Of a DNA stretch of 64,000 bases, positions 3,093 to 30,386 are shown piece by piece (within the stretch, counting starts at the first letter, position 1; each line of letters opens with the position of its first letter). The stretch lies in the NCBI GenBank assembly GCA_007376385.1, contig VMGC01000001.1:224001-288000 (forward strand), given 5' to 3'. The notes beneath the pieces are model-generated. The model ran no database searches. It saw only the letters and a list, made by a program, of their open reading frames with translations, and was not told the origin of the DNA. The DNA is from Parcubacteria group bacterium Gr01-1014_8 (GTDB lineage Bacteria > Patescibacteriota > Minisyncoccia > Phycocordibacterales > UBA2100). The position numbers and the translations under genes are program-made.

Positions 3093-3830
3093 ATGCGCGT
3101 TGGCTCGGTCGGTATCATTGGGTACGGTAATTTTGGCGCGTTTTTACACGTGCTATTGAAGCGTTTTGCGCCGCAGATCACCGTCCGCGTCTTCACGCCA
3201 GAAAAGAAACCAGATGGCGCCACATTCTTTTCGATGGAAGAAGCGGCTGTGTCAGACGTTGTTGTGCTTGCTGTTCCTATCAGCGAATTTGAGAACGTAT
3301 TGGAGGATGTATTGCCACACGTCAAAGAGACCAGTGTCATCGTGGATGTCGCCACCGTGAAAATGCATACCGCAGATGTGCTCAAGCGGCTCGCGCCACA
3401 TAGGTCATATATTGCAACTCATCCGATATTCGGGCCCGAGAGCTATGCAAAACGGGAGGGGAACGTATCCGGTTTCAGAGTCGTCATTACGGACCATACC
3501 CTGTCAAAAGATGTGTACAAGGCTACTGTATCGTTCTTAAGGAAAACAGGTTTTGCGGTCATTGAAGTGAGCGCGGATGAACATGATAAACGCTTGGCAC
3601 AAACGCTCTTCTTGACACATTTTATCGGGCAAACCATCACTGAAGCAGAATTTGACAGAACTGACATCGACTCGGTTTCATTCGGATTTCTGATGGATGC
3701 TGTAGAGAGCGTTAAGCACGACAAGCAATTATTTCAAGATGTCTATCGCTACAACCCGCACTGCAAGGCGACATTGGACCGGTTTGAAAAGGCAGAAGCA
3801 AACGTGCGCCGGATGCTCGATAAAAGCTAG
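3093..3830 (+). CDS. tyrA: Prephenate/arogenate dehydrogenase (TyrA family)
   Basis: N-terminal NAD-binding GIIGYGNFGAFL. Size and aromatic-pathway context fit the TyrA family. Confidence 0.6.
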   Translation: MRVGSVGIIGYGNFGAFLHVLLKRFAPQITVRVFTPEKKPDGATFFSMEEAAVSDVVVLAVPISEFENVLEDVLPHVKETSVIVDVATVKMHTADVLKRLAPHRSYIATHPIFGPESYAKREGNVSGFRVVITDHTLSKDVYKATVSFLRKTGFAVIEVSADEHDKRLAQTLFLTHFIGQTITEAEFDRTDIDSVSFGFLMDAVESVKHDKQLFQDVYRYNPHCKATLDRFEKAEANVRRMLDKS

Positions 3831-15619: not shown

Positions 15620-16340
15620 GTCCTGAACTACCGACCTCGGTGGTTTTTTTGACCCTCCTGTGAGGAGGGACAGAAGGCTTGAACTTTGACAACTGAATAT
15701 GAAAAATTGTACGCAAAACCAAAAAAGAAATTGGTAAGTAAAATTGTTGCCGGCGCTCGCTCGGAATTGAAAATTTATTTTCATTTCGCTCGCTCGCATG
15801 GGCAATAAGAATTCTTGTTGTTCTCAAGTTAGGAACAATAAGACACACACAAAAGCAAGAAAACAGAAAATACATATTGAGGTTCCAGGAGGATCTCATG
15901 TGTAAGTAAACAGTAATAACGAGACAAAAGATCCCCCAAGGGGACTGCGACTTTCTACGATTCAAATGAATCGTGAAAGTCGGGAGATATACATTCTTTT
16001 GTTTCGTCCATCCTAGAGATATTGAAGCAATTCAAATTCTTGAAAGTGGTGTAAAAACCATTTTTACTTAGAGTTTGATCCTAGCTCAGGGTGAATGCTG
16101 GCGGTATGGATAAGGCATGCAAGTCGAATGGGTTAGACCCATGGCAGACGAGGTAGTAACAGGTAGGTACGTCCCCGGAAGTCGGGCATAACCAGCCGAA
16201 AGGTTGGATAATTCCCGATGGTCTCGCAAGAGTAAAGATTTATCGCTTCCGGAGCGGCCTGCTTTGTATCAGCTTGTTGGTGAGGTAACGGCTCACCAAG
16301 GCTATGACGCATAGGGGACCTGAGAGGGTGACCCCCACCG

Positions 16341-16377
<37 letters not shown>

Positions 16378-16891
16378 TGCAGCCGAGAATATTCGACAAT
16401 GGGCGAAAGCCTGATCGAGCGATACCGCGTGGTGGATGAAGCGCTTCGGCGCGTAAACACCTTTTATGAGGGAAGAAATTTTGACGGTACCTCATGAATA
16501 AGGGGCTCCTAACTCTGTGCCAGCAGGAGCGGTAATACAGAGGCCCCAAGCATTACCCGGAATTACTGGGCGTAAAGGGTGCGTAGGTGGTCATATTAGT
16601 CGCCTGTTAAAACCCACGGCTCAACTGTGGAACCGCGGGCGAAACGGTATGACTAGAGAGAGTGAGAGGTGAATGGAACTCATGGTGTAGGGGTGAAATC
16701 CGTTGATATCATGGGGAACACCGAAAGCGAAGGCAATTCACTGGCACTTTTCTGACACTCAAGCACGAAAGCGTGGGTAGCGAACGGGATTAGATACCCC
16801 GGTAGTCCACGCCCTAAACGATGATCGCTGGATTTGGGGAGTATCGACCCTCTCCGAGTCGAAGCTAACGCGTTAAGCGATCCGCCTGGGT

Positions 16892-16923
<32 letters not shown>

Positions 16924-17390
16924 AGACGGGGGCTTGCACAAGTGGTGGAGCGTGTGGCTCAATTCGTCGCTAAGCGAAGAACCTTACCAGGGCTAGAAAT
17001 CCAGCTGCATACTTTGGGAAACCTTAGTAGCCTTCGAGGGTGCTGGACAGGTGATGCATGGCTGTCGTCAGTTCGTGGTTTGAATCGTTCCCTTCAGTGG
17101 GGTAACGAACGCAACCCTCGTTGCCTGTTATATTTGTCAGGCGAGACTGCCCCCTCACGGGGGAGGAAGGTGAGGATGACGCCAAGTCAGCATGTCCCTC
17201 TGATGTCCTGGGCTGCACACGCGCTACAATCGCCGTTACAACGAGGCGCAACGTCGTAAGACCGAGCAAATCTTTCAAAAGCGGCGCCAGTTCGGATTGA
17301 GGTCTGCAACCCGACCTCATGAAGCCGGAATCACTAGTAATCGCGGGTCAGCCACACCGCGGTGAATACGTTCTCAAGCCTTGTACTCAC

Positions 17391-18234
17391 AATAAAAGCG
17401 CACAGCAGTGTACATATCTATGCGGTTAAAATCCGCACCTCTCTTTCGTACAGAGAGCGTAGCAGAAGGATAGTTGTTATCCGCGAGGATGATAATGGAG
17501 GATCCTAATGCAAAGAGCAGCCATTTCGCACAAAAGCCGACCGACCTGTCAATGGGTGGTGAGGATAGGGAAGGTCCTAGAAAGGCAAGAAAATGGATGC
17601 CTAGAACAGATACGCACATAACCTGTGGAGATCTGACGCTGTTATCCCAAAGATGGGATATGATGAATCTGACGCAGCGTCAGAAGTCAGCTGAGTCATA
17701 GTATTTGCAGATATGCAAAAAAGGACTCACTCAAAGCAAAATCTTAGTCCAGATTATGTTGTTGGACTCGTAGATGGTGAAGGAAGCTTTACTGTCTACG
17801 TAAGAAATCCAGACATAGAGAAAAAAGTCGCTCGAAGAGTGGTTGTAGAGCCAAAATTCTACATAAAACTAATCGAACGCGACAAAGATATTCTCTATGC
17901 ACTTCGAGATTTCTTCGGATGTGGAAGTATTTACTTCCAAAAAGATAATCGTCCGAATCATCAACATTGCTATCGTTACGAGGTCTTCCGGTGGGAAGAA
18001 CTTCAAACGATAATCATTCCGTTCTTCAAGCGGCACGTTCTCAAATTCGCGTCAAAACGGCACGACTTTGAAGTGTTTTGCATGATGATGGAGCTTCTCA
18101 AAAAAGAAGCACATCGAACGGAAAAAGGACTACGAGAGTTGTTTAAGTTGAAACAACGCATGCATTGAGCTCGCGTAGTGCGGGAAATCCGCTCGCTACG
18201 TGGGAACATCAATTCTTAGATTCAAGAAGATAAT
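17391..18234 (+). mobile_element. Intervening sequence (intron) in the 16S rRNA near E. coli position ~1390-1400, carrying a homing endonuclease gene
   Basis: The 16S collinearity breaks after CCTTGTACTCAC (17390) and resumes at CGCCCGTCAACTC (18235). The 844-nt insert contains the LAGLIDADG ORF. Confidence 0.6.
17713..18168 (+). CDS. LAGLIDADG homing endonuclease (single-motif type), intron-encoded
   Basis: 151 aa. VVGLVDGEGSF is a LAGLIDADG motif. The gene lies entirely inside the 16S insertion. Confidence 0.8.
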   Translation: MQKRTHSKQNLSPDYVVGLVDGEGSFTVYVRNPDIEKKVARRVVVEPKFYIKLIERDKDILYALRDFFGCGSIYFQKDNRPNHQHCYRYEVFRWEELQTIIIPFFKRHVLKFASKRHDFEVFCMMMELLKKEAHRTEKGLRELFKLKQRMH

Positions 18235-18488
18235 CGCCCGTCAACTCAGGGAAGCCGGGAGTGTCCGAAGCACATACTCGTTATGTACCAAGGCAAACTC
18301 GGTGACAAAGAGTAAGTCGTAACAAGGCACGGCTAGCGGAAGCTGGTCGTGGATTCATTCAAAATTGATTTCGATTTTCAGGTTCGCCTGATAATCGGAG
18401 CAGTCGATTTCTGTATCTCGATCGAGTACAGAAGAAGGTATGACATTGATCCTCAAACATGTCGGACAACTTGGAAAGACAAGTGGAT

Positions 18489-18600
18489 AATGGACGGAAC
18501 AAAAGAGTGTGTATATAGATCAGGTTATAGGTTACAGCTTGTAGCTTGTAGGAAATGCGAACAAACAAAAACGCCGACTCGATATGAGCACGGCGTTTTT
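18489..18600 (+). repeat. Intergenic repeat element copy A (22-mer AATGGACGGAACAAAAGAGTGT ... terminator hairpin CAAAAACGCCGACTCGATATGAGCACGGCGTTTTT)
   Basis: The 22-mer is identical at 20812-20833. The 35-nt hairpin/T-run module is near-identical at 20901-20937. The hairpin is followed by a U-run on both strands, so it may terminate in both directions. Confidence 0.6.
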
Positions 18601-18974: not shown

Positions 18975-19070
18975 AGGGAAAAGAGTGTGTATGAAGAATA
19001 GCTGGTAGCTTGTAGCCAGCAGCTTGCAGCAAATACAAAACGCCCGAAAGGGTGGTTTTGTGTTGCAGCG
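18975..19070 (+). repeat. Intergenic repeat element copy C (AAAAGAGTGTGTAT...AGCTTGTAGC...AAAACGCC hairpin)
   Basis: Shares AAAAGAGTGTGTAT and the ...ACAGCTTGTAGC...AAATNCNAACA...AAAACGCC backbone with copy A. It follows the 115-aa ORF. Confidence 0.45.
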
Positions 19071-21657: not shown

Positions 21658-21729
21658 GCGCGTTTAGCTCAGTGGTAGAGCATCCCTCTGATAAGGGGAA
21701 GGCCGTAGGTTCAATCCCTACAACGCGCA
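21658..21729 (+). tRNA. tRNA-Ile (anticodon GAT)
   Basis: GCGCGTT acceptor, AGCTCAGTGGTAGAGC D-arm, anticodon loop CTGATAA (GAT), T-arm GGTTCAATCC, 3' acceptor AACGCGC plus A. CCA is not encoded. Confidence 0.85.
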
Positions 21730-29630: not shown

Positions 29631-30386
29631 GTGAAAAGAGGACCGAAACCGAAAGGGCAGGTAAGTACAAATTGGTCATCGGACTTTGCTTACGTCATTG
29701 GATTAATTACTGCCGATGGTTGTCTGCTTAATGATGGCCGACACATTGATTTTACTTCAAAAGATCGAGAGCAAGTTGCAACGTTCAAAAAATGCTTAAA
29801 GCTCAAAGCCAAGATCGGCATCAAACATTCTGGGATCGGAAACGAGTACTACCGCATACAATTTGGCGATGTTTTGTTTTATGCATTTCTTGTTAGCATC
29901 GGCTTATCTCCTGCAAAATCAAAAACAATCTCTCACGTGCTTGTTCCTGATGAATATTTTCTGGATTTTCTCAGAGGTTACTTCGATGGAGATGGCACAA
30001 GTTATTCTTTTTACGATTCAATCTTCCCAAAAAGTTACCGATTCTATATATCGTTTATGTCGGCAAGTCCCGTCTATATTCATTGGCTAAGAAAAAAGAT
30101 AAGTGATTTTTTACACATTCAGGGGCATCTCGACCGCAGTGGTAACAAGCCGTACATTCAACTCAAATTCTCAAAGAAAGAAGCAGTGATACTAGCCAAA
30201 GGTATGTACTATTCTAGCGGCATTCCGTGGTTAACGCGGAAGCATTTGAAGATTCAGCGATCTTTACGCATAATCGAGGCAGGCCGCGGTGGTGAAATTG
30301 GTAAACACGCTGCGTTCAGAACGCAGTTCTCGCAAGGGGTTGGGAGTTCGAGTCTCCCCCGCGGCACATCAAAATTTGCTCATTAA
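29631..30386 (+). CDS. LAGLIDADG homing endonuclease (double-motif type); reading frame runs through the downstream tRNA-Leu
   Basis: YVIGLITADGCLL and LRGYFDGDGTSY are two LAGLIDADG motifs. The frame is already open from 29610 inside the tRNA fragment. The last ~35 codons are tRNA-Leu sequence, and the stop at 30384 lies past the tRNA. Confidence 0.75.
   Translation: MKRGPKPKGQVSTNWSSDFAYVIGLITADGCLLNDGRHIDFTSKDREQVATFKKCLKLKAKIGIKHSGIGNEYYRIQFGDVLFYAFLVSIGLSPAKSKTISHVLVPDEYFLDFLRGYFDGDGTSYSFYDSIFPKSYRFYISFMSASPVYIHWLRKKISDFLHIQGHLDRSGNKPYIQLKFSKKEAVILAKGMYYSSGIPWLTRKHLKIQRSLRIIEAGRGGEIGKHAAFRTQFSQGVGSSSLPRGTSKFAH
30283..30366 (+). tRNA. tRNA-Leu (anticodon CAG), class II with long variable arm
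   Basis: GCCGCGG acceptor, GTGAAATTGGTAAACAC D-arm, CTGCG-TTCAGAA-CGCAG anticodon arm (CAG), ~15-nt variable arm, GGGAGTTCGAGTCTCCC T-arm, CCGCGGC-A 3' acceptor. Confidence 0.8.

Follow-up and report, generated by a model that had tools for sequence, protein, structure and literature searches.

The window analysed here, a 64,000-nt stretch of contig VMGC01000001.1 (positions 224,001-288,000) of Parcubacteria group bacterium Gr01-1014_8, contains a 16S rRNA gene (16063-18363) that is split at 17390/17391 and restarts at 18235. The 844-nt insert (17391-18234) is interpreted, with a probability of about 0.8, as a mobile group II intron of a small, IIC-like type, which has lost its reverse transcriptase (RT) and whose domain IV holds, instead, the gene of a LAGLIDADG homing endonuclease. 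The insert has a conserved RNA architecture with covariation, and is assigned to group II rather than group I because of a match to the Rfam group II model RF01998, the geometry of domains V and VI, covariation over 15 helices, and the complete absence of a group I match. The host is a bacterium of the Candidate Phyla Radiation (CPR). Coordinates refer to the whole 64-kb window, with all features on the forward strand, 16S positions follow E. coli numbering, and L-numbers denote loci in relatives.

The boundaries of the insert are defined to the nucleotide. The match to the Rfam bacterial small-subunit (SSU) rRNA model RF00177 begins at 16063 (1278 bits), and its alignment tracks the 16S sequence up to ...UGUACUCA at 17389 and breaks down beyond. 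By direct reading, the 5' exon (16063-17390, E. coli 1-1399) has the last bases ...CCTTGTACTCAC at 17390, and the 16S restarts with CGCCCGTCAAC at 18235. Counted along the universal stretch G1392-U1406 (GUACACACCGCCCGU), the insert falls between C1399 and C1400, and this position is fixed without sliding, because the intron begins with A and ends with T and the adjoining exon base is C on either side. The 3' exon (18235-18363) runs from C1400 via helices h44 and h45 to the 3' tail of the gene. The first-pass annotation of this DNA had placed an 844-nt insert at 17391-18234, near positions ~1390-1400 in the decoding-centre region, and direct reading reproduces its end points exactly. It had also linked such 16S genes to CPR lineages, in agreement with the relatives collected here by a protein homologue search with one genome per species, which yielded 35 loci, all in CPR (Patescibacteria) metagenome-assembled genomes.

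The insertion site is shared by the whole family. A homologous insert is present at the identical site 1399/1400 in 35 of 35 independent assemblies encoding a homologue of the open reading frame (ORF). The site was checked by BLAST of the window exons, intron parts and ORF against the relatives, with junctions that escaped the strict pattern confirmed by eye, and every relative locus that holds upstream sequence has the same 5'-exon end base and the same intron start base. At the other end, a spacing of 68 nt separates the motif GAGCUCG from the 3' junction in all but two of the 34 introns measured (32 of 34). The uninterrupted junction TGTACTCACCGCCCGTCA is present in at least 120 metagenome contigs, and intron-less 16S genes with this junction reach up to ~84% full-length identity to the window 16S. 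Empty sites are thus frequent among related 16S genes, and the distribution of the intron is patchy. Further insertions of ~0.8-1 kb are present at other 16S sites in many relatives (L001, L004, L020, L030, L032, L034 and others), near the window equivalents of ~16796 and ~18321, and one of the insertions elsewhere in the L034 16S (1638-1887 of that locus) is a bona fide group I intron. The window 16S has one intron only.

The intron class, left open by the first-pass annotation with a suggestion to run Rfam models, is indicated by a match to RF01998 (group-II-D1D4-1) at 17639-17726; its 42.3 bits exceed the gathering score of 35. Of 20 relatives, 11 also have a match to this model above the gathering threshold, in the corresponding position. 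For the upstream part of the ribozyme, an alignment of the 5' 350 nt from 34 introns (alignment A2) was folded with RNAalifold, and the base of domain III and the pairing between exon-binding site 1 (EBS1) and intron-binding site 1 (IBS1) were added. The resulting model of domains I-III comprises 15 helices and 89 pairs, which are 94.9% paired across the 34 sequences, compared to 37-42% when the partners are slid, and 67 of the 89 pairs contain compensatory changes. Helices 2-13, all in domain I, are 88-100% paired, with compensatory changes at nearly all pairs. In the downstream part, the 21 pairs of domains V-VI are 99.0% paired on 33 aligned sequences, compared to 36-52% with partners slid, and 11 of them contain compensatory changes. 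The order of the elements is that of a group II intron, involving a multi-armed domain I closed by long-range stems, followed by domain II, the J2/3 linker and domain III. The features that define group IIC (a small ribozyme of ~400 nt with a CGC triad, in which IBS1 is short and a second exon-binding site, EBS2, is lacking; established knowledge and PMC13190283) have their counterparts in a compact ribozyme of ~390 nt outside the ORF, a CGC triad and a 5-nt IBS1, while no EBS2 is apparent on inspection, beyond which no search was made.

The intron begins with a 5'-terminal linker, AAUAA, followed by a degenerate 5' motif, AAGCG (together 17391-17400, delimited in A2). Domain I (17401-17627, from RNAalifold on 34 sequences) is closed by two stems, 17401-17405/17623-17627 and 17408-17419/17608-17619, which enclose two hairpins (17421-17437 and 17439-17457), an arm (17462-17511) tipped by the GNRA loop GCGA (17483-17486), and a further arm (17515-17602). 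Domain II (17628-17688) consists of a basal stem (UCUGACGCUG/CAGCGUCAGA) around a variable hairpin and overlaps the RF01998 match; its helix, number 14 of the model, is 99.5% paired, with a change from CUG/CAG to GGG/CCC in L020. The nearly invariant J2/3 linker AGCUGA (17689-17694 in A2) also lies within the RF01998 match. Domain III (17695-17726, from the Rfam alignment) has a GUC/GAC base, an internal loop AUAGUA/AAAG and a variable distal hairpin, and covariation is seen in its base helix, where A-U replaces G-C and C-G replaces U-A. Domain IV (17730-18169) is closed by a basal stem of CUCAAAGCA (17730-17738) with UGCAUUGAG (18161-18169), formed by the region right after domain III and the last ORF codons, and its loop holds most of the endonuclease gene. 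Of the 36 sequences examined, 34 have a basal duplex of this type, which includes a matched U/A insertion; the other two are L017 and L025, from which no 5' strand was extracted.

The last 65 nt of the intron, downstream of the stop codon, form two hairpins even when folded as a single sequence, and these correspond to domains V and VI. Domain V (18170-18204, from the single-sequence fold and the alignment) is canonical in its geometry and contains two basal pairs, the CGC triad (18172-18174; C-G, G.U, C-G), five further pairs, a 2-nt bulge UC (18193-18194) on the 3' strand, and a 4-bp upper stem with the loop GAAAU. The central G.U of the triad is invariant, and the 14 pairs are 99.6% paired, six of them with compensatory changes. 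Domain VI (18208-18231) is built of a 2-bp base and a 5-bp upper stem closed by a 6-nt loop, and its helices 2 and 3 covary. The intron ends in a 3' tail, AAU (18232-18234), in which the last U is invariant (33 of 33 sequences, column 84), and the terminal AU agrees with the group II consensus.

Several observations weigh against the assignment to a functional, mobile group II intron. The boundary consensus of group II introns is 5' GUGYG and 3' AY, and the 5' end here is AAUAAAAGCG rather than GUGYG, with AAGAACCGCG in the relatives. The 5' end is therefore read as the 5-nt terminal linker followed by a degenerate GUGYG, in which the invariant GCG at 17398-17400 (A2 columns 16-18) would replace the last three bases of the motif. 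The GUGUA at 17408 was considered as the real 5' end and rejected, since this segment is variable among relatives, and its covariation marks it as the 3' half of a stem in domain I. The Rfam model of domains V/VI, RF00029, has no match even at E <= 10, nor in 20 relatives. Domain V is not capped by a GNRA tetraloop but by GAAAU, which can also be read as AAA closed by G.U. In domain VI, the window has G18229 where the branch point usually lies, and the family count there is G20/A9/C3/U1, so that there is no conserved adenosine; the bulged branch adenosine of group II introns is dispensable, as hydrolytic splicing exists. Two relatives, L024 and L031, have an insertion of ~50 nt within the 3' strand of domain V, flanked by GCUACG and UGGGAAC (L024 952-1002; L031 ~3466-3510), which would interrupt the catalytic helix unless the insertion is itself removed, and some copies are perhaps inactive. 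Regarding mobility, clear two-fold symmetry is absent from the intron-less target, with 5 of 11 positions at best, and the idea of a palindromic target for a homodimeric enzyme was dropped as uninformative on this score; a non-palindromic target is unusual for a homodimeric endonuclease, though not unknown.

The only long ORF of the insert (17713-18168) encodes a single-domain LAGLIDADG homing endonuclease of 151 aa. It matches Pfam LAGLIDADG_1 in one stretch (E = 5.5e-15), and in alignments with the two-domain enzymes I-PanMI, I-OnuI and I-SmaMI it covers first one half and then the other (E = 1e-30 to 1e-25), from which it follows that the protein is of the single-motif kind, as had been read from its translation in the first-pass annotation. 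Its motif is GLVDGEGSF, in which the acidic residue at the catalytic position is kept as Glu. The ratio of nonsynonymous to synonymous substitution rates (dN/dS) is 0.07-0.13 against eight close relatives with unsaturated synonymous sites, indicating that the protein is maintained by strong purifying selection. Homologues form at least 1618 clusters in public data, and among the matches listed they come only from close CPR relatives. Most relatives have the AUG of the endonuclease within the basal stem of domain IV, where the final codons pair with it (AUGCAU). In the clade of the window, this AUG is lost (AAG, in the 17733-17738 region) and an in-frame AUG 7-9 codons upstream is used, placing the start codon of the window ORF (17713) in the terminal loop of domain III.

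Recognition of the 5' exon is accounted for by EBS1, GUGAG (17559-17563), in the loop of hairpin 17545-17569, which complements IBS1, CUCAC (17386-17390), the five bases at the end of the 5' exon, and does so in every one of the 34 sequences (100% paired). The pairing is invariant except for one G.U, and its support therefore comes from position and not from covariation. The helix takes in the U at E. coli 1396, a position at which most bacteria have A. An origin of U1396 as an adaptation caused by the intron was rejected, since many intron-less CPR 16S genes have the same base; its presence in the intron-less junction contigs also makes it a lineage trait matched by EBS1 and not a by-product of the intron. 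A splice site at 1396/1397, as in Thiomargarita, was likewise rejected, the intron-less junction reading TGTACTCAC-CGCCCGTCA. The conserved sequence GGACUCACUC (17724-17732), just past domain III, repeats the exon ACUCAC bound by EBS1, which may be coincidence or may provide an internal competitor for EBS1.

For the 3' exon, a suggestive candidate partner of its first base is G17558, which adjoins EBS1 on the 5' side and is A in exactly the two loci (L014 and L020) whose 3' exon begins with U and not C. These two loci represent one lineage, and a second intron column (A2 column 165) changes in both of them as well. In group IIC introns, EBS3 is located in a separate internal loop of domain I, away from EBS1.

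The following scheme of splicing is proposed from this architecture. The intron would be transcribed inside the pre-16S rRNA and fold into its six domains, and the pairing of EBS1 with CUCAC would bring the 5' junction to the active site in domain V, formed by the CGC triad with its G.U and the 2-nt bulge. The first step would be an attack by water with release of a linear intron; such a hydrolytic step is considered most likely, with moderate confidence, because of the 5-nt linker before the 5' motif and the absence of a conserved branch adenosine. In the second step, C1399 would be ligated to C1400, restoring the decoding-centre strand with the junction ...GUACUCAC-CGCCCGUCA... For mobility, the predicted activity and specificity of the protein are those of an endonuclease, presumably a homodimer, that would cut intron-less 16S genes at ...TGTACTCAC/CGCCCGTCA... 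(target TTGTACTCACCGCCCGTCAA), and repair off the intron-bearing copy would then spread the element.

Four other explanations of the insert were weighed. Metagenomic rRNA genes assemble poorly and many of the relatives sit at contig ends, raising the concern that a 16S gene was fused to an unrelated mobile element; such a misassembly had been named at the outset as a possible refutation. It is excluded for all practical purposes, because the insert position is shared by 35 independent assemblies from different studies, with both junctions identical, and both exons moreover stay in register and complete a 16S gene. A group I intron, spliced via guanosine attack, would be a natural expectation, since the Rfam group I model matches 35% of CPR 16S insertions and 45% of CPR 23S insertions (PMC11270868), LAGLIDADG_1 genes are typical passengers of group I introns, and a true group I intron is present in the 16S of L034, but this assignment is contradicted by the sequence of the insert: RF00028 (Intron_gpI) has no match in 17300-18400 even at E <= 10, the last base of the 5' exon is C and not the U required for the P1 U.G pair, the terminal base of the intron is U and not G, and domain V, with its triad and bulge, is backed by covariation and accompanied by an EBS1-IBS1 pairing. 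A group I intron is consequently regarded as very improbable.

The two remaining explanations accept the insert but remove one part of the proposed life cycle. Excision without ligation, by an RNase III-type mechanism or a cleavage-only ribozyme, would leave a 16S rRNA split at 1399/1400, as do the fragmenting intervening sequences of bacterial 23S genes, which have also been proposed for some CPR insertions (PMC11270868). The RNase III-type variant was rejected for lack of a long terminal stem between the ends of the insert, whose duplex (-7.6 kcal/mol) is weaker than the mean of shuffled sequences (-9.8). More generally, a break between C1399 and C1400 would fall in the decoding centre, and both exon-binding contacts are conserved, as is domain VI, a pattern to be expected if ligation is important, making loss of ligation quite unlikely. 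It is also unlikely, if a little less so, that the intron splices but is immobile, with the protein kept as a maturase or for another role. In its favour, the ORF identity to relatives roughly follows the 16S exon identity, as expected under mostly vertical descent, the target is not palindromic, and some LAGLIDADG proteins are maturases (established knowledge, cited in PMC4424553). However, the catalytic acidic residue is kept (GLVDGEG), empty sites are common in related 16S genes, giving the patchy distribution described above, and the LAGLIDADG protein of a Leptographium group II intron was found to cut DNA without aiding splicing (PMC4424553). A mobile group II intron that ligates its exons is thus preferred over all four.

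The interrupted 16S gene has several further features. The first-pass annotation had pointed to mutation of the 515F primer site, and this site indeed reads GTGCCAGCAGGAGCGG at 16517-16532. The change of GCC to GGA (E. coli 524-526; 16526-16528) is mirrored by a change of GGC to UCC (505-507; 16507-16509), so that the 530-loop pseudoknot keeps its three pairs, and the alteration is compensated rather than a sign of damage. The same two triplets covary in the fetched CPR 16S genes (UGC/GCA in 17, UCC/GGA in 11, GGC/GCC in 11). The 3' tail of the gene (18354-18363) is GGAUUCAUUC, without the CCUCC anti-Shine-Dalgarno sequence, as in most intron-bearing relatives, while L014, L020 and L028 retain GGATCACCTCCTT; loss of the anti-Shine-Dalgarno sequence has already been published for a subgroup of Parcubacteria (PMC9297842). 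No 23S or 5S rRNA gene is present in the 64-kb window, in which the 16S gene is accompanied by two tRNA genes only (21658-21729 and 30283-30366), and the rRNA genes are thus unlinked. Just 3' of the 16S gene, a small ORF is flanked by two direct repeats of ~75 nt (18501-18575 and 18979-19050), which start with AAAAGAGTGTGTAT and are each followed by a terminator-like hairpin; the 12-mer is seen twice, compared to 0.13 expected. These repeats may be small RNAs or regulatory elements. As for the relatives, some loci (L001, L004, L005, L008, L009 and others) are titled 'uncultured Candidatus Saccharibacteria', labels that look generic rather than accurate. The identity of the window 16S is 80-95% to L001, L005, L008 and L009, a range that also takes in genomes of the Parcubacteria group (91% to Kaiserbacteria and 90% to Nomurabacteria).

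The practical consequence of the intron is that it lengthens the 16S gene by 844 nt and splits the 1392R/1406 primer region, and amplicon work therefore misses or mis-sizes intron-bearing 16S genes. Standard rRNA callers also truncate the gene here, the Rfam match having stopped at 17422. For RNA biology, the element provides a clean and compact case of a group II ribozyme paired with a DNA endonuclease instead of an RT, with a covariation-rich structural model, and would lend itself to studies of hydrolytic splicing in which the 5' splice site is displaced. The current picture of such introns is unchanged, the phenomenon having been reported for CPR bacteria in 2024.

The report in question is the survey of 380 CPR 16S genes by Tsurumaki et al. 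2024, in which 53 insertions gave an Rfam group II signal, predominantly at 16S position 1400 (site 16IS9); 39 of the 53 carry LAGLIDADG genes and none encodes a reverse transcriptase (PMC11270868). The suggestion that the insertion site is among the known SSU intron sites is borne out by this catalogued CPR site. The window intron is a new member of the 16IS9 set, sharing with it the CPR host, the 16S position, the Rfam group II signal, the single-domain LAGLIDADG_1 ORF and the absence of an RT, with no difference in kind. As the survey is concerned with Rfam matches, positions and ORFs, the additions made here are the intron class, the covariation-supported domain map, the 5' linker, the absent branch adenosine and the exon pairings. 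The endonuclease characterised by Tsurumaki et al., I-ShaI, is from a 23S group I intron (PMC11270868). The closest solved relatives of the window protein by sequence are I-OnuI, I-PanMI and I-SmaMI (5esp, 4lox and others), with which it has the fold and motif in common. Members of the I-OnuI family are two-domain monomers of ~300 aa, whereas the window protein is a single 151-aa domain, which must pair with itself to form an active enzyme.

Among group II introns, a catalogue by Liu et al. 2026 comprises 753 LAGLIDADG-encoding members in 13 families, of which rns-1396, a family of IIC type first seen in Thiomargarita, is the only bacterial one; the family of the window intron is absent from it (PMC13190283). 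The rns-1396 introns occupy the site UUGUACA/CACCGC (1396/1397), with an EBS1, UGUAC, complementary to GUACA (Table S4 of PMC13190283), and all members have a 5' linker, which is tied to hydrolytic splicing, though not in every case (PMC13190283). They resemble the window intron in their bacterial 16S host, the small IIC-type ribozyme, the single-motif LAGLIDADG gene in domain IV, the 5' linker and the lack of EBS2. The Thiomargarita intron of this family reportedly goes back to Salman et al. 2012. By contrast, the window site, GUACUCAC/CGCCCG (1399/1400), is 3 nt downstream, its EBS1 is GUGAG instead of UGUAC, and the ACUCAC exon occurs in no listed rns-1396 member, the families being set apart here by site and EBS1 and not by comparison of ribozyme sequences. 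A further parallel is provided by the IIB1 introns of fungal mitochondrial rRNA genes, for which Li et al. 2011, as summarised in PMC4424553, reportedly described 5'-terminal insertions, splicing 1-33 nt upstream of the 5' motif, an altered EBS1-IBS1 pairing, and loss of EBS2 and of the branch motif. The two groups have in common the rRNA host gene, an often present LAGLIDADG ORF, the displaced 5' splice site and the lost branch site, and differ in the subclass (IIB1 as opposed to an IIC-like CGC triad), the organellar host and the mostly double-motif enzymes of the fungal introns. With more than 1,600 endonuclease clusters and no entry in the 2026 catalogue, it is tentatively proposed, at somewhat less than an even chance, that the CPR 1399/1400 introns form a separate and very large bacterial family of LAGLIDADG group II introns, tuned to the CPR U1396 in IBS1, splicing by hydrolysis, and perhaps reading the 3' exon by the base adjacent to EBS1, in the manner of group IIA, despite an IIC-like core. 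If so, endonuclease-driven group II introns would have their largest natural reservoir in CPR bacteria and not in fungal mitochondria.

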